Of a stretch of DNA of 31,660 bases, positions 5,413 to 25,425 are shown in pieces. The notes under the pieces were generated by a model. That model saw nothing but the letters and a program-made list of their open reading frames with translations. It had not been told where the DNA came from and searched no databases. The DNA lies in the IMG/VR virus record IMGVR_UViG_2541047727_000009; one strand, given 5' to 3'. The translations under genes were made by a program, and so were the position numbers. The stretch is from a virus (Duplodnaviria; Heunggongvirae; Uroviricota; Caudoviricetes; Peduoviridae). The stretch's first letter is position 1. Each line of letters opens with the position of its first letter.

Positions 5413-6603
5413 TTAATTGCTGTTAACCGAGGTGACCAGATTTGCCAGGTATTTATCGGTAATACGCTGGCGCAGGGTCAGGTTTTCAAGAGGAGGCACC
5501 GGTGTATAGTCGTAGTCGATATACAGTTTTCCGGCCTTGAGGGTTTCCGCATCGTTGGATTCTTCGCTGAACCAGCAGGTCGCATCCACGATATAGCCGT
5601 TTGTTTTCAGCTCACGGAATTTGGCATTGATGCCGTCAACGATGTCGCGAATCAGCGTTGCGGTGATGGGCTTGTCCACCGCCCACATGTGCGCCTCAGC
5701 CATCGTGTCGGCCAGCACCTGCGCGGTGCGGGTGTAGTTTTCAAAGAGGAACAGCGGGTCATCGGAGCAGGTACGGTTACCCCAGAAGCGGAAACCGTCG
5801 CGGCGAATCAGCGTTGTGACGCCTGACTCGTTAAGCAGGTCAGCATCGGTGCCGGACTCCTGCAAATCCCAGAATACAGATGCGCTGATGCCGGTAACAC
5901 CGTTCACCCCGACATTGGACAGCGTTTTATGCCAGCCCTGCTCCTGGTCGATTTTAGCGCGCAGACCCAGCGCACGGGCGGTGGCATACGCGGTGGCGGT
6001 GGTACTGCTGACCGTATCCCATGCGAGGAAATCCGGCCAGATGACCATCAGCTCACGCTGGCTGAAATTCTGGCGGTAGGCTTTCACCTCGGAAATGGTC
6101 TTACAGCCCCATGCGCTGATATACCCAAAAGCGCGCAGCTTCTGACAGACTGATGCCAGTGCAACAGCCACCTCTTTGGTGTCCAGTCCCGGCACACCAA
6201 GAATACGCGGTTTAACACCGGTTACCGACTCCGCCGCCAGCAGGGCTTTCAGTCCGGTGTACTGACCGTTTTCGTCAGTGGTGCCGATGATATTGGAAAC
6301 GGTCTGCGCGAGTTTCGTTTCTTCGTCTTCGCCGGTGCCGTCTTCCACACGCACGACAACGGTGACCGGTTTTGACTGGTCGGCGATGGCCTGCAACGAT
6401 GCCGCCAGCGTGCCTTTTTTACCGGCCTTTGCAATTGCGCTCTGCACATTGGTAATCAGCACCGGTTTATTGAGGGGAAAGGTTTCCGCATCCGCATCGC
6501 TGGCCGTGCAGACCATGCCGGCAATGGCCGTGGATACGGTGGAAATGACGCGGGTGCCGTCGTTAATCTCCAGCACCTGCACGCCGTGATGATAGTCACT
6601 CAT
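5413..6603 (-). CDS. FI: contractile tail sheath protein FI, 396 aa
   Basis: 396-aa ORF, first gene of the F-E-T-U-D block; size equals P2 FI. Confidence 0.9.
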   Translation of the reverse strand: MSDYHHGVQVLEINDGTRVISTVSTAIAGMVCTASDADAETFPLNKPVLITNVQSAIAKAGKKGTLAASLQAIADQSKPVTVVVRVEDGTGEDEETKLAQTVSNIIGTTDENGQYTGLKALLAAESVTGVKPRILGVPGLDTKEVAVALASVCQKLRAFGYISAWGCKTISEVKAYRQNFSQRELMVIWPDFLAWDTVSSTTATAYATARALGLRAKIDQEQGWHKTLSNVGVNGVTGISASVFWDLQESGTDADLLNESGVTTLIRRDGFRFWGNRTCSDDPLFLFENYTRTAQVLADTMAEAHMWAVDKPITATLIRDIVDGINAKFRELKTNGYIVDATCWFSEESNDAETLKAGKLYIDYDYTPVPPLENLTLRQRITDKYLANLVTSVNSN

Positions 6604-6735
6604 CCGTTTAACTCCGTGGTTAATGGGTGAGTGGTATTTTCAGTTGTGCCGGAGATGTCAGGCTATTTGTCCCGGTTGGCTAATCGACAGCACAACCACC
6701 GGTAAAGAAAAGACGGGCAATCAGCCCGCCTGTGT
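6604..6735 (-). promoter_or_regulatory. G-FI intergenic region: weak hairpin plus T-run after G, and expected Ogr-dependent late promoter for FI; no cargo gene at the P2 Z/fun position
   Basis: 132-bp gap; minus strand has CGGGC-N5-GCCCG followed by TCTTTTCTTT just after the G stop; exact promoter elements not identified. Confidence 0.35.
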
Positions 6736-7263
6736 TTATTGCGGTATTTCCGGCCATTCAGGATTTGCAGGATCCACACGGCTGACCAGAACACTGTAGC
6801 GTTCCCATGCTTCCAGTCGGCTACGCTCCTCATCTGTTGCCATGTTCAGCCTGACAGCGCGCTCCAGTGGCTGAATAACGCTTTCCGCTTCGGAAAGTAA
6901 CGCGGCCTTTTGTGATTCTGCCAGTTGCTGCTGTTCGTCTGCCGTATAAATCCGCTTAATCACAGCACCATCCTTAAACATCCATTTACCTGAGTCATCA
7001 GCACGTCGGTTGGCGGTAATATCAGGAACCTCGACAACGCTAAAACCTTCAGGGTTAAGCGTTGAAGCATCTCTGGTGATGCCGACAATTATATTATTCT
7101 CGTCGTAAACAATCTTTATCGTGTCTTCCTGAAAATTACTTACTTCCTCATACCAGTTTTTTCCCTCTTCGGACCATAACCAGATAACATCAAAATTTTT
7201 TGTCAGTTGATATTGGGCAACAGTTTTTGGATTACCCGCAGTAATATTTTTTAAATGCTGCAT
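6736..7263 (-). CDS. G: tail fibre assembly chaperone G, 175 aa
   Basis: 175-aa ORF immediately downstream of the tail fibre gene; size and position equal P2 gpG; AT-rich like the distal part of H. Confidence 0.85.
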
Positions 7264-7266
7264 AAA

Positions 7267-9996
7267 TTACACCTGTGCGACGTTATACCATGTGCCATTG
7301 ATGTATTTTTGTATTGGTCTGAATACTGCCGGGTCATCACCATCGACTTCACCGACAATACCAAGCCCCGTGATTACATGGCCTGATTTTTCATACATCA
7401 CGCCTTTTTGCATGGTCTGAACAACACGTGTGCCAAGTCTGACATCTCTCACATAGCGGGAATCAAAGTTACCGTAATCCGAGGGATTAACACGCCCCGT
7501 AATATTTATGGTTTTATTACTTTGAATACTTCCCGAGACAAAGCGCATAACATGGACGCTATTAGCATAAACATCCAGATTACCATCACCATTTTGTTTA
7601 AAGCCCGTGTCATTATCACCCAAAACAATCGAATTACCGCCAAGAGCACTGGATGTTCCTATACCCAGTGCACCATTCAATTGACCACCAGATAACGGCA
7701 GTGCACCGACATCTCCCGCTGTAGGTTTTCGCGTTGTAGTATAAAACTCAGACCAGTCAGCCTCGAATCCGTAACCGTCACGAGCAGAACGATAAAAAAT
7801 ACCGCCGTTCTTATAATTAACGCGGAACTGGGCGGCGGGGCAACTTCCTTCACCGATATTAAAATGAAGAATTAACGTTGATGCCCCACCAGTAGTTGCG
7901 TTATAGGCTCCGCTACTCCAGTTCCATCCAACGGCTTTATCATTCGCAACGGTGTCTCCTGTTTTTCCTGAAGCAAATGCACCAATATTTTTCGGCGTCA
8001 GGTTAATATCTGATGTTCCATCAAACGAAACGTTATTAATTTTACGGGCTGTTTTCAGCTTTGTTGCTGTCGCCGCATTGCCGGACAGTTCACCAGAAAG
8101 GCCAGCACTGAATGTCTGTTTCGCGCCCCATGTCTGGGCTTCGTCAATGATTGGTACTCGTCTTGCTGTAATCGTGCGACTTCCCGGATTTCCTGAAATA
8201 CGCACCATAAAAAAGCGGTAGTTGGCCTTACTTACAGTGCTGCGCCATACATGCATTGAGCGCCCCGTACCGGAATCATCACTCGGACCAACTGCGATGT
8301 TTATCAGGTTGCCATCAATGACGCCCCAGTCCATACCGTCGGGAATGTTGGTCATATTATCAAGCCGAACGGTTATCAGACTGCCCGGCACAAAATCGTA
8401 TGTCTGCCAGTCCAGGCTGGTGAGTTTTGCCACTGCGCCACCGATACCCAACTCTAACGGCAAAGAGTTTGAGTTATAAATCTGTCGCCACTCCCCCCAC
8501 GCGTTAAATGAGCCACCAAGAAAAACTCGCTCATATAAACGGTCTTTTGTAGCTGCGCTGGTTCCTGTGGTCGTGTAACGTTGCAAAACATAGACACCAT
8601 CCTTGCGCCTGATGACTTCCAGAAAACCAGACTGCCCCTGGATTGGGGTGTGGGTCGCTTTGCCTGTCACACTGTAAATACCCGGAGACATCAAATCATC
8701 CAGGTCATCCTCATAGAAGGTACTACTGGTCTGATAACCAATTTGGATCCAGTCTTCCCACTGTGGATTTTCTGCATCCCATTTGGCTGTCAGGCCGCGA
8801 ATATACATAGTCCCGTTACGGGTTGTATAACGCTGCGTGCGTCCATATAGCCCACCTTCGAAAATTTCCAGAATGCCCTGCGCGTCTCCTCCCTGCTCAG
8901 GGTAATGTCGTTCAAAAGAAGCTATTGCTGAACTGCTGTTTCTCCATAGACCTAAATGTTCTGCGCCACCGAGAGAGTTAAGGTCAATGGTCGTACTTAG
9001 AGCACGCGTTACAGCCTGAACATGGCGCCATGCTCCCCATGGTCCATCATTACCATTCCATGTTCCAATGAGTTTGCGGATATACAAATTTCCGTCACGT
9101 GTGGTATAGCGTTGCGTGCCTGCAAAATTGCCGCCAGCAAAAACCTCAAGCACACCGACAGCATTATCTTCCGGGAAATTTTTCTCCAGTGTTGCGTTGG
9201 TGGACGTTGCTTTAGACCAGATACCTGAATAAGCCTTAACAGGACCAAATGTATTCAGGTCGGCATCAACAGGCATTTCGCCGTTGTTTTTCATAAACGT
9301 CAGGCTGGTAACGCCAACATTGTCCAGAAAAGCTGATTTATCCTGGATATCTGCACCGTTCTGATTTTTCGCCAGACGTGAATTTGCGTTGTCATTTGCT
9401 GCCTTGACCGCTTTTGGCGTTGCCGCCAGCTTTTCACTGGTGCTGTTTGTTGCACTGCTTAACTGAGTAAAACCTTTTTCTGTCAGCGTGGCGTCAGGAT
9501 GGCGGCGGGACTGCTCATGCTCTGCGATTTTGTCATCGACGTAATCCTGCGTCGCCATCACCGTGCTGGCATCAATACTCAGCTCAACGGACGCCACGTT
9601 GCTGAGAATAATAACCATGCGGCAGGTCTGCGCACGTCCGGAGCCTTCAGCCAGTTCTGGCTTATAGCTTTCTGCCATGTTGGATACCGCAATCAGTGTT
9701 CCGGCATCGTCATACAGACCAAGCTCACGCATCCAGAAGCCGCCCACTTCGGGCGGTACAACCAGTTCAGCCACGATATAGTTTTTATTCTTGTTATCCA
9801 CGCTGACTTTATTCAGAGCGTGACGCCAGACCTCATGCACCAGTTTCGTCTGACCGGCATCCGGCACCGGCAATTTGCCATTACCGTCACCCACGGCCAT
9901 TGCAGACAGGTTTACTTTTTTCCCGCCGGGGACAGTGGCGGCTGCCAGCTTTGCGGCTCCGGCAGTAGTGATAACGGTTTTAAATTTCGTGCTCAT
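7267..9996 (-). CDS. H: tail fibre protein H, 909 aa (extended, mosaic distal region)
   Basis: 909-aa ORF after I; three tandem ~45-aa repeats each containing QRYTTR(D/N)G..YIR; distal half lower in GC than proximal half. Confidence 0.9.
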   Translation of the reverse strand: MSTKFKTVITTAGAAKLAAATVPGGKKVNLSAMAVGDGNGKLPVPDAGQTKLVHEVWRHALNKVSVDNKNKNYIVAELVVPPEVGGFWMRELGLYDDAGTLIAVSNMAESYKPELAEGSGRAQTCRMVIILSNVASVELSIDASTVMATQDYVDDKIAEHEQSRRHPDATLTEKGFTQLSSATNSTSEKLAATPKAVKAANDNANSRLAKNQNGADIQDKSAFLDNVGVTSLTFMKNNGEMPVDADLNTFGPVKAYSGIWSKATSTNATLEKNFPEDNAVGVLEVFAGGNFAGTQRYTTRDGNLYIRKLIGTWNGNDGPWGAWRHVQAVTRALSTTIDLNSLGGAEHLGLWRNSSSAIASFERHYPEQGGDAQGILEIFEGGLYGRTQRYTTRNGTMYIRGLTAKWDAENPQWEDWIQIGYQTSSTFYEDDLDDLMSPGIYSVTGKATHTPIQGQSGFLEVIRRKDGVYVLQRYTTTGTSAATKDRLYERVFLGGSFNAWGEWRQIYNSNSLPLELGIGGAVAKLTSLDWQTYDFVPGSLITVRLDNMTNIPDGMDWGVIDGNLINIAVGPSDDSGTGRSMHVWRSTVSKANYRFFMVRISGNPGSRTITARRVPIIDEAQTWGAKQTFSAGLSGELSGNAATATKLKTARKINNVSFDGTSDINLTPKNIGAFASGKTGDTVANDKAVGWNWSSGAYNATTGGASTLILHFNIGEGSCPAAQFRVNYKNGGIFYRSARDGYGFEADWSEFYTTTRKPTAGDVGALPLSGGQLNGALGIGTSSALGGNSIVLGDNDTGFKQNGDGNLDVYANSVHVMRFVSGSIQSNKTINITGRVNPSDYGNFDSRYVRDVRLGTRVVQTMQKGVMYEKSGHVITGLGIVGEVDGDDPAVFRPIQKYINGTWYNVAQV

Positions 9997-10006
9997 TGTT
10001 TCTCAC

Positions 10007-10537
10007 TTATCCGGGATAAACAGTAATAACATCACCATCACAGACCACACCGCCTGTATACAGATAGCCGGGAATGTCCTGGATAATGTTCAGACCGATA
10101 AGGTGGCGACTTGCGGGTTTGGCATCGGCAATCAGCCGTTCCATTTCCAGATACATCTCCTCCGTGATACCGCTTTCCAGCACACCGATATCAAGGCGAA
10201 AGGTTCCGGGCGGGTCGTTTGTCTCCCACCATTCCTTTACGTTAATGAGATAGCCGAGCGGCTCCACCACACGCCGGATTGCGCCTATAGTGCCTTTATG
10301 ACAGTGGATGAAATACGCATCGCGGATAACGGCGCGTTTTGTCGCTTCCGGCCACTTTTCATCCCACCTGTCGACCGAAAACGCCCACGCCAGCCACGGC
10401 AGCAGATTTGCCGGACAGGTGTCCGGGTTCCACAGCTCACGAATACTGACCGGCGTTTTTTCAATTTCCGCACAGGCTTTTGCGGCGGCAACTTCAAGCG
10501 GTGATGAGCCGGTCGGCAGCAGTCGCGAATCACTCAT
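10007..10537 (-). CDS. I: baseplate assembly protein I, 176 aa
   Basis: 176-aa ORF overlapping the J stop by 8 nt; order V-W-J-I-H as in P2. Confidence 0.85.
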   Translation of the reverse strand: MSDSRLLPTGSSPLEVAAAKACAEIEKTPVSIRELWNPDTCPANLLPWLAWAFSVDRWDEKWPEATKRAVIRDAYFIHCHKGTIGAIRRVVEPLGYLINVKEWWETNDPPGTFRLDIGVLESGITEEMYLEMERLIADAKPASRHLIGLNIIQDIPGYLYTGGVVCDGDVITVYPG

Positions 10538-12488: not shown

Positions 12489-12941
12489 CTAACGGTCGAG
12501 ATGAGCCAGGATAATCTCTTCAATCATCTGCACATCCTCACCGGTAAAGCCGAGCAGAGGACGCGCCGGATAATCAATTTTCTTACCGTCTTTCCGGGTT
12601 TCTTCCGACAGACCGAACTGATGCACACTGGCGATTTTCGGTGACTTTCCGCCGTAAAACTCCATTGATGCCTGTTCCGGGCTGGCGTGGATATGCAAAA
12701 AACGACTGGTGATAAGTTTCGCAAACATTTTTCGCTTAACACGACCGGTCTTTTTTCTGGCGCTCTGCTGCTGGCGTGGCGCGTAGGGTGTACCGTCCGG
12801 GGCTTTCTGGGCCATCACCCGACGCTGCTGACTCTGCCGCAGACGTTTCGCCAGTTCGGCACTCAGTCGCCGACGCCCTGACGGTGACAGCGACTCAATC
12901 AGTCCGGTCAGCCGGTCTTCAAAACGCTTAAACTCATTCAT
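12489..12941 (-). CDS. S: tail completion protein S, 150 aa
   Basis: 150-aa ORF overlapping the R stop by 8 nt; size and order equal P2 gpS. Confidence 0.85.
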   Translation of the reverse strand: MNEFKRFEDRLTGLIESLSPSGRRRLSAELAKRLRQSQQRRVMAQKAPDGTPYAPRQQQSARKKTGRVKRKMFAKLITSRFLHIHASPEQASMEFYGGKSPKIASVHQFGLSEETRKDGKKIDYPARPLLGFTGEDVQMIEEIILAHLDR

Positions 12942-13401
12942 CCCACTTGCTCACCAGTTCGCCATTGATATAAAGCTTCATCGGGCGGGTGACCGGCTCC
13001 GGCGGCGTGGGTTCCGGGATATTCTTCACATGCAGCGCGCCGTCCACCTCACTGACCAGCGTGCGTTCGGTCAGCATCAGGCTGATGCTGATATCAAAGC
13101 TGCTGTCATTGTTGATGTCTGCATAAAACGTGAAGCCCTTTTTCTGGCCTTCGTCGGTGGTCATGATGTCGGGCTGATTTTCCCGCAGCCACGCCAGCAC
13201 CGGCACGATGAGCAGGTCAAAATCACCGGTAAAGTCGGTCACAATGACATTGAGCGTGTAACGCTTTTCGAATGACAGCGACGTCGCCAGTGTGGAGGCA
13301 ATACTCCCGTTATCCACGAATATCCGCAGCATATCGGGGTTAGTTTTCAGCACCGTGACGGCATCAGTCAGCGCCCTGCGCAGGCTGTCGGGTTTGAGCA
13401 T
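12934..13401 (-). CDS. R: tail completion protein R, 155 aa
   Basis: 155-aa ORF following the lysis cassette; size equals P2 gpR. Confidence 0.85.
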   Translation of the reverse strand: MLKPDSLRRALTDAVTVLKTNPDMLRIFVDNGSIASTLATSLSFEKRYTLNVIVTDFTGDFDLLIVPVLAWLRENQPDIMTTDEGQKKGFTFYADINNDSSFDISISLMLTERTLVSEVDGALHVKNIPEPTPPEPVTRPMKLYINGELVSKWDE

Positions 13402-21839: not shown

Positions 21840-21858
21840 GTGCTTTCCCCGCCTCGCC
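21840..21858. other. cos site: 19-nt cohesive-end sequence (reverse complement GGCGAGGCGGGGAAAGCAC)
   Basis: Plus strand GTGCTTTCCCCGCCTCGCC; its complement matches the P2 cohesive end as I recall it; sits ~170 bp beyond the Q stop, as in P2. Confidence 0.75.
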
Positions 21859-21915
21859 CGCCCGCTTCATGGGGCGGTTTTAATGCAGTTGCACGAACAA
21901 TCCAGATTCGCGCCA

Positions 21916-21939
21916 GCTCTGACAATATACTGTCAGAGC
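21916..21939. repeat. perfect 9-bp inverted repeat GCTCTGACA-N6-TGTCAGAGC next to cos
   Basis: Read directly from sequence; no flanking T-run, so not a canonical terminator. Confidence 0.5.
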
Positions 21940-22533
21940 AAGCACGTCTGACGCATGCAAAAAAATGCATCTTTTGTATGCAATGCAGAAATCAAACAAA
22001 TTTGAGTATAAATTAACGATGAGCCCTATGATTTTTAACTTCATCCCTAGCAGTTAACAGCAAATTAAAAGTCTTTATCTGCCTGATACTGCCCTGAACA
22101 GTAGTAACAACGATACTCAACATCACCATCATCCATTGGCCAAATGCTCATTTCGCTGCTGGGAGCCTGCGCACCACAACAATCGCAAGCAACATCAATA
22201 TCATCACTATCTTCATTCTGACAAAAAGTGCATTTGTAACCCGTAGAAGACTCATCAGAGGGAATCATTGTGTCGTTAGAACACTCAGGACATTCATAAA
22301 CTTTCCAATCGACCAATTCATAAAATTTATGCCTAACCCCATAAAAAGCTTCAGCCTCTCTTTCTTCAACTTCTTTCTTGGCTTCAGAGAGCCTATGAGA
22401 GTATTCATCAGCTAAAGTTTGAAATATCTGTAAGTTATCTGCACCGACTTCATCTTCAAGATTAAAAAGATCGAAGATATCAATAAACTCAGCTACCCCC
22501 CGGACTAGGCGTCCAATACACAAGCGCGCGTCT

Positions 22534-22537
22534 TTAG
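22534..22537. repeat. IS5 target-site duplication TTAG (left copy; right copy at 23733-23736)
   Basis: Identical 4-bp TTAG directly flanks both IS5 termini; fits the IS5 YTAR target preference. Confidence 0.7.
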
Positions 22538-23732
<1,195 letters not shown>

Positions 23733-24264
23733 TTAGGAGTAAGTCTGAATTGATAATGCTCAATATCATTTCTTAAATTCTTTATCCAAGCTATATCATT
23801 ACAAAAATCAATATCTACAAAATCAACCCCAGTTATGCCACATTTCTCACACTTAGCAAAGTTTAGTGCCTGATCTAAGGTTATCGTATATGGCCTAGAT
23901 TTCCCTTCAATGAACCTTCCTAAATCAACGCCATCCTCGATAATTTTATTATATGCGTCTAAAAGACTGATTGATTCTCGCTTTGCTCTTGTAGCTATTT
24001 GTTTATAGCAATCGGAATACAGTAAATTTTCATCTACTGTAACAATATATAACTTCAACACCAGCTCAAGAAAATGTGACAAATGCAAGATAGCAAATTT
24101 ATATTGCCGCAATTCTCCTCTCTGCCCTAACTCATACTTTGCTAAAGCTTCATTAAAACTATCAATAGCATTCTCTTGTAAATCCAGTTGATATTCCATT
24201 ACATCACCTAAAAATTTCATATTTATATGAGTGCAGAAAACCATTCAGCACTCATTGCTTATAA

Positions 24265-24996
24265 TCAATTATCTAATATTGATACAACCTCTCCCGTTCG
24301 TATGTCGACGCGCGCAGCTATAGTCTGCTTAACCACTCCACCATAAGCATTAGTACCGCGAAACGTAGTTTTCACAATAGCGTACGGGTCTTTATTCAAA
24401 ACCAGATGATATACCGTTGACACATGTTTATAAGATGAATCATCGTTCATATTATCTTTAATTAGTTTTTCCAATGGACGATAAGAACCATCCCAACCAC
24501 TAAAATTACTCTGAAATGTATCAAGATTGATTTTATTGTTTAGTGAATTCGGGTCATTTTCATAATCATTAAAGCACCACCCAAGAACATCACCGAGTTT
24601 CAACTCATCATCTTTGGTAAATGTATACTCACTCATGCAGGCATAAAACGCATCTGACGCGGTGGCTGGAACTTCCTTAAAATCAATGTAACTATTCACA
24701 ATATCGTGTCGTGTTTTCTTTGACTCGTTCCGATATTCCTTGAGTGTTTTTTCCCCATATTCGAATGTTTTTTGGACTTTGTGTTCTGCAACGGTTGATG
24801 TTTCAGTTTTATCAACTGGCTGGCTTTTTTCTGTTGGATAGAGTATTGAACCAATTATGCTCAATACAAAACCTCCTCCGAGATAAACCGCACTTGCACG
24901 TTTGCGGTTTGGCATTCGCACCAGTGATGGCTTGATTAACCCGATGAAGAAAGCAACGAAAAAAGCGAGTGATAGAAAAGCGATTATAGTATCCAT
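24265..24996 (-). CDS. hypothetical membrane-anchored protein (two N-terminal TM helices plus ~180-aa hydrophilic domain), 243 aa from internal ATG
   Basis: ATG at 24996 preceded by AGGA; hydrophobic stretches IIAFLSLAFFVAFFIGLI and VYLGGGFVLSIIGSILY; stop lies 65 nt upstream of the HEPN-like gene start, same strand; AT-rich. Confidence 0.65.
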   Translation of the reverse strand: MDTIIAFLSLAFFVAFFIGLIKPSLVRMPNRKRASAVYLGGGFVLSIIGSILYPTEKSQPVDKTETSTVAEHKVQKTFEYGEKTLKEYRNESKKTRHDIVNSYIDFKEVPATASDAFYACMSEYTFTKDDELKLGDVLGWCFNDYENDPNSLNNKINLDTFQSNFSGWDGSYRPLEKLIKDNMNDDSSYKHVSTVYHLVLNKDPYAIVKTTFRGTNAYGGVVKQTIAARVDIRTGEVVSILDN

Positions 24997-25425
24997 AGCT
25001 ATCCTTTTTGCATCATCCACATAAAAAATCGACCTCATGTTAGCAACAGGATGCTTACTTTTGAATATTTGTAAGTTGTTAGCTCTCCAACCTAACTCCT
25101 TTCAACCGTTAAAAACCGGCACCAACGCAGTAAAAATATGTCTGTCAACTAACGCCTCGCTTCGCTCGTTGTTCAACCCCGCCAGCCCTGAAAACAAGTT
25201 TCACGACTGGCGGCGTTCTCTATCGTCTGCGTGGTGGTGGCGCAACTCTGGACTGACCGATATAGTTAAGCCGCCCGTAATTATCCCGGACTATTTCGGC
25301 ACACCCGACCAGCTCATCGGGCGTCAGATTTTCGTTGACCATAATCCGCTGTAAACGCTGAACAATAGCCATCAGCCTGATATTTTTAGTTTTATGGTGC
25401 GGTATCTCGCTTGGTATTCTGTGCA

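Follow-up and report, generated by a model that had tools for sequence, protein, structure and literature searches.

The tail-fibre protein H of Yersinia phage L-413C (NC_004745, 913 aa) is presented in PMC7460101, citing Garcia 2008, as a mosaic in four regions, with a P2-like N-terminal part of 207 aa, a non-P2 middle and a P2-like C-terminal part of ~137 aa; the same source gives GpH as the receptor-binding protein of this phage. On Y. pestis, L-413C and P2 vir1 need one common critical LPS-core residue, the terminal GlcNAc, and on strain CO92 Pgm- their titres were 5e11 and 2e7 PFU/ml, respectively, the main difference being the stock titre (PMC3182234). Exchange of the hypervariable region HR2 alters host range in phage P88, and host-range sites of a P2-like fibre map to this C-terminal region (PMC5285337). 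L-413C is a plague-diagnostic phage.

The window analysed here, a stretch of 31,660 nucleotides, carries a gene of the same type. H is a real gene, a 909-aa ORF on the minus strand (7267..9996) that codes for an L-413C-type mosaic tail fibre, with homology to H of L-413C, H of phage 899 and the corresponding gene of E. coli GN04171. The sequence-only reading had called the fibre extended, which is correct because P2 H has only 669 aa. H adjoins a P2-type gene I (10007-10537; Pfam Tail_P2_I 2e-55) and is followed, 4 nt past its stop codon, by the start of gene G (6736..7263, minus strand), a 175-aa tail-fibre assembly chaperone of the Tfa type (Pfam Caudo_TAP (PF02413) 2.8e-35; phrog_136 2.4e-80). 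A terminator-like hairpin with a T-run lies directly 3' of G (6711..6731, minus strand) and closes the V-W-J-I-H-G operon, just as an annotated terminator ends the equivalent operon 3' of G in P2. The order I-H-G, terminator and then FI is that of a P2-type late operon and agrees with the annotated relative GN04171. An NCBIfam scan of H gave no match, while Pfam returned Phage_tail_fib (3.1e-57), as for a P2-type fibre. Judged from its sequence, H is the tail-fibre gene of a P2-like (Peduovirus) E. coli prophage and an ordinary one of its kind.

H is colinear with L-413C H, with 82% amino acid identity over 909/913 aa and 6 gap positions, and the two share gene position and module order, including three knobs and a fourth domain. 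Their identity is 100% over aa 1-236 and 99% over aa 626-909, both flanks being 98-100% identical in nucleotides, and L-413C G is 95% identical to the G of the window. In contrast, the knob cassette of L-413C is another allele, in which knobs K1, K2 and K3 and the fourth domain (D4) show 46%, 82%, 40% and 70% identity, respectively. Since nucleotide identity in this cassette is 0.39-0.81, its synonymous sites are saturated. The cassette allele of the window matches that of phage 899 and Yersinia phage GMG73 (96.5-96.6% of nucleotides); H as a whole is 97.8% identical in amino acids to H of phage 899 and 99.9% identical in nucleotides to GN04171. The gene is present at a coverage of at least 80% in 28 phage records and in 171/5426 complete E. 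coli genomes. Variation within this set of relatives is concentrated in the knobs and in 31 aa of the tip, the knobs being as variable as the tip; the tip of L-413C is 99-100% identical to the one studied here. The layout of H is thus that of the L-413C type, with P2-like N-terminal 207 aa, a mosaic middle and a P2-like C-terminal part of ~137 aa.

In BLASTP, H could be aligned with P2 H (NC_001895) only at aa 1-207 (84% identity) and at aa 768-909 (52%, with a 56-aa gap), the latter corresponding to P2 H aa 472-669. Instead of a full-length colinear alignment with no composition break, which would speak against an exchanged module, we found two aligned blocks and stepwise changes in composition, and the fibre is therefore a recombinational mosaic. 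The N-terminal block begins with the baseplate-attachment domain Phage_tail_fib (PF12571; aa 1-151, 9544..9996, minus strand) and is 98-100% identical among L-413C-type fibres over aa 1-207. A Phage_fiber_2 repeat at aa 170-211 (9364..9489, minus strand; Pfam 1.1e-20), which also matches Mu S, is the first of the conserved linker boxes and lies at the N-side breakpoint relative to P2; this breakpoint falls at aa ~203-207, and DNA similarity to P2 stops at position 9391 of the window. In place of P2 H aa 208-471, where a Gp34_trimer-like segment accompanies a second Phage_fiber_2 repeat, H has a 560-aa block (aa 208-767) in which three knobs are followed by a fourth domain, then a linker box and a Mu S'-like domain. 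No knob domain was detected in P2 H with the unit HMM described below, and the P2 tip carries 56 residues that this H lacks. H is set apart from P2 by a moderately AT-shifted middle (aa 208-767) and by the 56-aa tip indel.

The knobs account for the triple tandem repeat of ~45 aa proposed in the sequence-only reading. An HMM of the repeat unit, built from 17 sequences that include the three units of the window, finds three contiguous copies in H at about aa 236-327, 330-419 and 421-508. We delimit them as K1 (aa 236-328, 9013..9291; 4e-40), K2 (aa 329-418, 8743..9012; 8e-41) and K3 (aa 419-508, 8473..8742; 2.7e-26), all on the minus strand, with 46-97%, 69-100% and 40-100% identity among relatives, respectively. 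The motif LE[VI] starts at aa 283, 376 and 459 and QRYTT at aa 295, 388 and 472; the repeat period is therefore 93 and 84 aa and not ~45. Three copies are real, but the unit is a contiguous domain of 84-93 aa, and the 45-aa motif covers no more than its conserved C-terminal half. The full shared motif holds for K1 and K2; K3, the most diverged copy, retains only G.LEV...QRYTT...LY.R...W..W. AF2 models all three as similar beta units (pLDDT 76-86 for K1), and their predicted fold agrees with the knob domain of R-type pyocin fibres. When the unit profile was searched against the PDB with hmmsearch, it matched Pseudomonas phage Pa193 gp47 (9B45, 2.2e-4) as well as 6CL5 (3.8e-3), 6CT8 (6.4e-3) and 6CL6 (8.9e-3), with nearly the whole unit aligned each time; the knobs of the pyocin R1/R2 fibres (PDB 6CL5, 6CL6, 6CU2) and of Pa193 gp47 are merely ~10-20% identical to those of H. 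The repeats are best modelled as pyocin-knob-type domains, a case that leans on profile, fold and motif order agreeing, as E-values against pyocin knobs are modest (4e-3 to 9e-3). In pyocin fibres a lectin-like foot comes after two knobs, whereas in H about 400 aa of other modules come after three. The three repeats are thus common bead-like knob domains of the shaft type, not a demonstrated receptor-binding module, and not a new feature.

The cassette extends beyond the knobs. H aa 226-634 are 54% identical to aa 105-517 of T2-like gp37 (409 aa), a stretch that covers three knobs and the fourth domain, and the box GNAATATKLKTARKI...FDG..DI.LTP is common to H and gp37 of T2-like Tequatrovirus (e.g. 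ECML-134), the distal long-tail-fibre subunit. In this 1024-aa protein the cassette lies near the proximal (knee) end, and the tip is a different one, with a gp38 adhesin. The fourth domain (aa 509-625, 8122..8472, minus strand) is co-inherited with the knobs in T2-like gp37. We considered it as a further knob and rejected this, because hhalign against the knob profile gave a probability of 0.2, so that it is not detectably a knob. It was modelled by AF2 at low confidence within aa 210-673 and with a pLDDT of 42.7 alone (10 sequences); searched on its own for homologues, the domain gave near-identical fragments only. The conserved linker box that follows (GNAATATKLKTARKINNVSFDGTSDINLTP; aa 626-669, 7990..8121, minus strand) is 100% conserved among relatives and marks the C-side breakpoint of the cassette, at which nucleotide identity to L-413C rises from 0.70 to 0.98. 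The same box (66% over 44 aa) stands N-terminal to the cassette in T2-like gp37, but C-terminal to it in H.

The distal modules resemble phage Mu. The fibre repeat of Mu S (aa 110-176 in 5YVQ/8JU3) matches H aa 167-233, and a gp37_C domain at aa 670-767 (7696..7989, minus strand; Pfam 4.5e-5) corresponds to the variable part of Mu S', which is about 80% identical to H over aa 670-766 (8JU3 residues 321-417, 168 bits). The distal tip (aa 768-909, 7270..7695, minus strand) is P2 H- and Mu S-like, with a GDNDTGFKQNGDG box and a chaperone-binding C-terminus; H aa 833-908 are related to the Tfa-binding C-terminus of Mu S (aa 425-503 in 5YVQ), and the tip also matches S16 gp37 (6F45). G belongs to one Tfa family with the Mu chaperones U and U'. 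The equivalent of P88 HR2, aligned to P88 H aa 716-746, is aa 861-891 (7324..7416, minus strand). Among L-413C-type fibres this segment is either 97-100% or 16% identical; where it is 16% identical, G shows 68-69% identity in its N-half and 81-84% in its C-half. This co-variation goes in the direction expected of a chaperone with a variable N-domain matched to the fibre tip and a conserved C-domain, but it comes from two relatives only, and both halves change. An invertible switch of the Mu G, P1 C or P88 type was also considered. Mu has an invertible segment and P88 an invertase with inverted alternative fibre-end and chaperone elements; here the N-terminal anchor is P2-type, neither an invertible segment nor an invertase or alternative fibre end is present, the gap between G and FI is just 133 bp, and a search of 6600-10100 gave no significant inverted repeats. 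This arrangement was therefore rejected.

The distal half of H and G had been described as lower in GC. The drop is real, but it is stepwise, with no single break at the distal half: GC is 0.533 over aa 1-207, 0.485 in the knobs, 0.469 over aa 626-767 and 0.434 over aa 768-909 of H, then 0.393 over aa 1-95 and 0.519 over aa 96-175 of G. For the tip together with the N-half of G, GC3 is 0.363, compared to 0.639 in neighbouring late genes (z=-8.9). Such a trough, the lack of full-length colinearity with P2 H, and a tip with 56 aa missing and 11/31 HR2 positions different from P2 would fit a recent foreign import of a receptor-binding module made up of the AT-rich distal half and G, giving a host range different from that of P2. 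However, P2 has a matching trough at the matching place (tip 0.436, G aa 1-95 0.379), so that the trough does not separate this phage from P2. The AT-rich distal part and G moreover come closer to P2 than the rest does: the two G proteins share 91% identity, P2 H is matched at ~80% by the last 76 aa of H, and DNA identity to P2 over positions 7473-6736 is 85.5%, about equal to that of the flanking genes I and J (86.1%). In addition, a host range different from that of P2 is a weakly backed prediction, and L-413C, with an essentially identical tip, requires the same LPS GlcNAc as P2 vir1 (PMC3182234). Comparison with P2 therefore places any import before the split of this lineage from P2, and it largely refutes the idea of a recent one, which we consider improbable. 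Horizontal exchange stands insofar as the fibre is mosaic; the low-GC tip and chaperone are a unit that P2 has too, with domains that also occur in tail fibres of Mu and T-even-type phages.

Two further readings concern the knobs. That their repetition is a chance or compositional resemblance, with no true internal duplication, is hardly credible. It could draw on the K2-K3 score of 40 (z=2.5 against 500 shuffles, alone not significant) and on a DNA-level repeat search over 6600-10100 that gave just short chance matches, the latter indicating that the duplication is old. It is refuted by the scores of K1-K2 (177, z=28.5) and K1-K3 (54, z=5.7), by three full-length HMM copies in the independent T2-like gp37 (2e-35, 6e-35 and 5e-16), by the similar models of all three units, and by the occurrence of the domain in 1283 representatives of the searched sequence library, often in arrays of 2-7 copies. 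Less easily dismissed, although still unlikely, is a role of the cassette as a receptor-binding module, primary or auxiliary, that binds surface glycans laterally and whose swaps act as host-range switches. K1 and K3 are exchanged for 40-55% identical alleles between H genes with 98-100% identical flanks, cassette GC3 (0.467) is unlike that of the rest of the late genes, and, according to a review of R-pyocins, saccharide-binding fibres commonly carry knob-like domains and Knob2 may aid binding (PMC11871291). Yet other proteins carry this cassette in combination with several unrelated distal ends (Gp34_trimer, gp37_C, Collar + Phage_fiber); in T2-like gp37 it sits about 500 aa from the receptor-binding tip; experimentally mapped host-range sites of a P2-like fibre are in HR2 (PMC5285337); and a monomer model cannot reveal a binding site. 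It is conceivable, but doubtful, that the cassette (aa 236-625) is a second specificity determinant swapped independently of the tip, with O-antigen or core glycans possibly bound laterally. If so, two modules that are shuffled separately, the knobs and the tip with G, would determine host range in L-413C-type P2 phages, and not the tip alone.

We favour the reading that H is a side tail fibre from a P2-like (Peduovirus) E. coli prophage and has the long mosaic form known first from L-413C, and give this reading, with the module order and mechanism that follow, a probability of about 0.85. The P2-type N-terminal domain (aa 1-160) would anchor a fibre that, by homology, is probably a trimer to the baseplate. 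After the Phage_fiber_2 repeat come a 390-aa shaft cassette of three pyocin-knob-type domains and the fourth domain (aa 236-625), the linker box, the Mu S'-like gp37_C domain and the P2/Mu S-type tip. The mechanism of Tfa chaperones was reportedly studied by North et al. 2019 on Mu S and U (PDB 5YVQ). By the same homology, G would use its variable N-terminal half to bind the C-terminal tip and would start trimerisation from the C-terminus. The tip, chiefly aa 861-891, may then recognise LPS core sugars, and the knobs would mostly serve to lengthen the shaft as rigid beads. The mosaic would have arisen via recombination at conserved boxes, and the low-GC tip and N-half of G would be an old co-transferred unit. 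Among near-identical H genes the knobs are more variable than a purely structural spacer would suggest, which counts against this explanation.

This type of gene and its mosaicism, as well as the knob domain and the low-GC unit of tip and chaperone, are documented or already annotated in public records and hence known, which leaves little discovery value; the map does correct the idea that a low-GC distal part separates this phage from P2. Breakpoints and modules may be of use for the engineering of P2 or pyocin fibres, with linker boxes at aa 170-211, 626-669 and about 785-812. It is mildly interesting that near-identical fibres differ as much in their knobs as in their tip.

The intact 909-aa ORF at 7267-9996 on the minus strand lies between a Tail_P2_I gene (I, 10007-10537) and a Caudo_TAP chaperone gene (G, 6736-7263, minus strand), both recognized by Pfam matches, within the gene order ogr-D-U-T-E-FII-FI / G-H-I-J-W-V-S-R. 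An annotated P2-like prophage of E. coli GN04171 has the same order, with 99.9% identity over H and G. The window ORF is gene H of a Peduovirus prophage and encodes the side tail fibre. It is indeed extended, at 909 aa compared to 669 aa for P2 H. Since this type of gene is already known and common, H is of low interest in itself. In GN04171, the nearest genome, an IS21-like ISEc12 element lies inside tail gene R (L003, 26235-29288), while R is uninterrupted in the window (12934-13401, 155 aa). Two long, unsupported antisense ORFs (9499-10026 and 9875-10504, both plus strand; 175 and 209 aa) overlap gene I and the 5' portion of H and are probably by-products of GC-rich coding sequence.

The sequence-only reading had described three tandem repeats of ~45 aa in H. 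The three copies are real, but the unit is ~90 aa: the LE(V/I) element of the motif falls at aa 283, 376 and 459 and its QRYTT element at aa 295, 388 and 472, giving periods of 93 and 84 aa, and what was described as a 45-aa repeat corresponds to the conserved C-terminal half of the longer unit. We refer to the units as knobs K1 (aa 236-328), K2 (aa 329-418) and K3 (aa 419-508); shuffle tests gave z=28.5 for K1-K2, 5.7 for K1-K3 and 2.5 for K2-K3. When units from H and 22 relatives were aligned, they shared the motif order DLN..G.W...P...G.LEV...QRYTT...Y.R...W..W. An HMM derived from this alignment found exactly three contiguous copies in H (aa 236-327, 330-419 and 421-508). It also found three each in H of Yersinia phage L-413C and in an independent protein, gp37 of T2-like phage ECML-134, and none in H of P2 or P88. 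A repeat search at the DNA level found nothing repeated within H, and the duplication of the unit is therefore ancient.

Compared with all PDB sequences, the unit profile had only phage and pyocin fibres as top matches: Pa193 gp47 (9B45, 2.2e-4), R1 pyocin fibre (6CL5, 3.8e-3) and R2-type pyocin (6CT8/6CU2, 6.4e-3; 6CL6, 8.9e-3). These alignments span nearly the whole unit and fall onto the pyocin Knob region. An AF2 model of H aa 210-673, confident (pLDDT 70-86) over the three units only, matched 6CL5_A in a Foldseek search of the PDB (E=1e-5, prob 1.0) and, among viral structure models, tail fibres from many phage groups. Close relatives of H already bear the NCBI name 'pyocin knob domain-containing protein'. 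A search of 1.84 billion library representatives yielded 1283 proteins that match the unit (E<=1e-3), and 2-7 copies per protein were common. The triple repeat of H is thus nothing out of the ordinary: a widespread domain of fibres, arrayed in tandem. In other proteins, the distal modules that follow the knob cassette (K1-K3 plus a fourth domain, D4, aa 509-625) differ, being Gp34_trimer, gp37_C or Collar + Phage_fiber.

Beyond the knobs, H is a mosaic. Residues 1-207 are 84% identical to P2 H, and aa 167-233 match the Mu S fibre repeat. Residues 226-634 correspond to aa 105-517 of a T2-like gp37 (54% identity), and aa 628-671 to gp37 aa 63-106 (66%), with the box GNAATATKLKTARKI..FDG..DI.LTP. 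These are followed by a segment (aa 670-766) ~80% identical to the variable part of Mu S' (8JU3) and by the tip (aa 768-909), which is 52% identical to P2 H aa 472-669, where P2 has a specific 56-aa insert. The last 76 aa are ~80% identical to P2 H and are related as well to the C-terminus of Mu S (5YVQ); G is 91% identical to P2 G. Similarity to P2 DNA is found at 10700-9391, 7648-7559 and 7473-6736.

Lower GC in distal H and in G, also noted earlier, was borne out. GC is 0.533 over H aa 1-207 (0.559 in P2), 0.485 over the knobs (aa 236-508), 0.519 over D4, 0.469 over aa 626-767 and 0.434 over the tip (0.436 in P2); in G it is 0.393 over aa 1-95 (0.379 in P2) and 0.519 over aa 96-175 (0.506 in P2), with neighbouring genes I, J and FI at 0.54-0.58. 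GC3 is 0.363 for the tip and N-terminal half of G versus 0.639 for neighbouring late genes (z=-8.9), and 0.467 for the knob cassette (z=-7.1). Across ~21 kb of structural genes, GC falls below 0.45 only in the tip/G trough and in a single 400-nt window (0.445) with which the sequence opens. The drop over the tip and G is real and marks foreign ancestry. However, the trough is common to P2 and the window phage and therefore is not what sets them apart: the sequence-only reading was right that H is mosaic, but named the wrong module as distinguishing it from P2.

The H of L-413C (NC_004745, 913 aa) is colinear with the window H over the whole protein (82%). Scored in 90-nt windows, nucleotide identity starts at 0.92-1.00 (as far as aa ~240), drops to 0.39-0.81 between aa 241 and 630, and recovers to 0.96-1.00 over the remainder of H (aa 631 onwards), continuing at 0.83-1.00 through G. 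The window H therefore differs from that of L-413C, the best characterised of its relatives, by a replaced knob cassette, and the breakpoints fall at conserved boxes. According to the summary in PMC7460101, Garcia et al. 2008 described L-413C H as a four-region mosaic.

We then compared seven L-413C-type H/G pairs, each with the window. H aa 1-207, the linker box (aa 626-669) and the S'-like domain are 98-100% identical, whereas K1 ranges over 46-97%, K2 over 69-100%, K3 over 40-100% and D4 over 70-98%. The knobs thus vary strongly among fibres that are identical elsewhere, which leaves a modest chance of a role for them in host recognition. HR2, a host-range segment named in P88 H (aa 716-746) and aligned with window aa 861-891, is 97-100% identical in five of the seven relatives and 16% in the other two (L011, NC_070906; L012, LR595885), making two tip classes among L-413C-type fibres. 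G of these two is 74-76% identical overall (N-half 68-69%, C-half 81-84%). These sequence comparisons suggest that the HR2 tip segment and its chaperone G are exchanged together.

From family knowledge, the N-terminal domain of H would anchor a homotrimer to the baseplate, the knobs would be trimeric beads lengthening the shaft, and the tip would bind LPS core. G may bind the fibre C-terminus and nucleate trimer folding from that end, as in the Mu S/U model reportedly due to North et al. 2019 (PDB 5YVQ), in which a chaperone on the fibre C-terminus starts trimer folding. For GpH of L-413C, binding to cells of Y. pestis has been shown (PMC7460101). L-413C and P2 vir1 alike depend on the terminal GlcNAc in the outer core of Y. 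pestis LPS (PMC3182234). Stocks of L-413C and P2 vir1 had very different titres on Y. pestis CO92 Pgm- (5e11 versus 2e7 PFU/ml), and lysis of Y. pestis at 37 C by P2 vir1 had been shown earlier (PMC3182234). In P88, swapping HR2 alters host range (PMC5285337). Relative to P2, the window tip is a P2-family allele with 11 of 31 HR2 positions different and 56 aa fewer; the tip of L-413C is essentially the same. Phages with the window H type have E. coli (899, uropathogenic strain) and Y. pestis EV76 as isolation hosts. The window phage may plausibly differ from P2 in host range in a quantitative way; there is no indication that it uses another class of receptor.

P88 carries a Mu/P1-style switch downstream of G (L007, 25416-27564), comprising a DNA invertase, an inverted alternative fibre end and a chaperone. 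The window prophage has no such inversion system, with just 133 bp between G and FI. This interval (6604-6735), the P2 'Z/fun' cargo hotspot, is empty apart from a terminator-like hairpin and the FI upstream region; the site is occupied by fun(Z) in P2, by an unknown ORF in L-413C and by two hypothetical ORFs in phage 899.

Next to the portal gene is an island of very low GC (21850-25040; 0.33-0.44). One 257-aa ORF in it (24265-25038, minus strand) had no Pfam or PADLOC match. An IS5-family transposase ORF (22684-23700, minus strand; DDE_Tnp_1 5e-35, DUF772 4e-21) is flanked by two ORFs with matches to PDC-S64, a candidate defence protein in PADLOC: one (23705-24244, 7e-15) to its N-part, the other (22065-22523, 1e-4) to its C-part. 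The arrangement looks like a candidate defence gene at the P2 old/tin hotspot that was interrupted by an IS.
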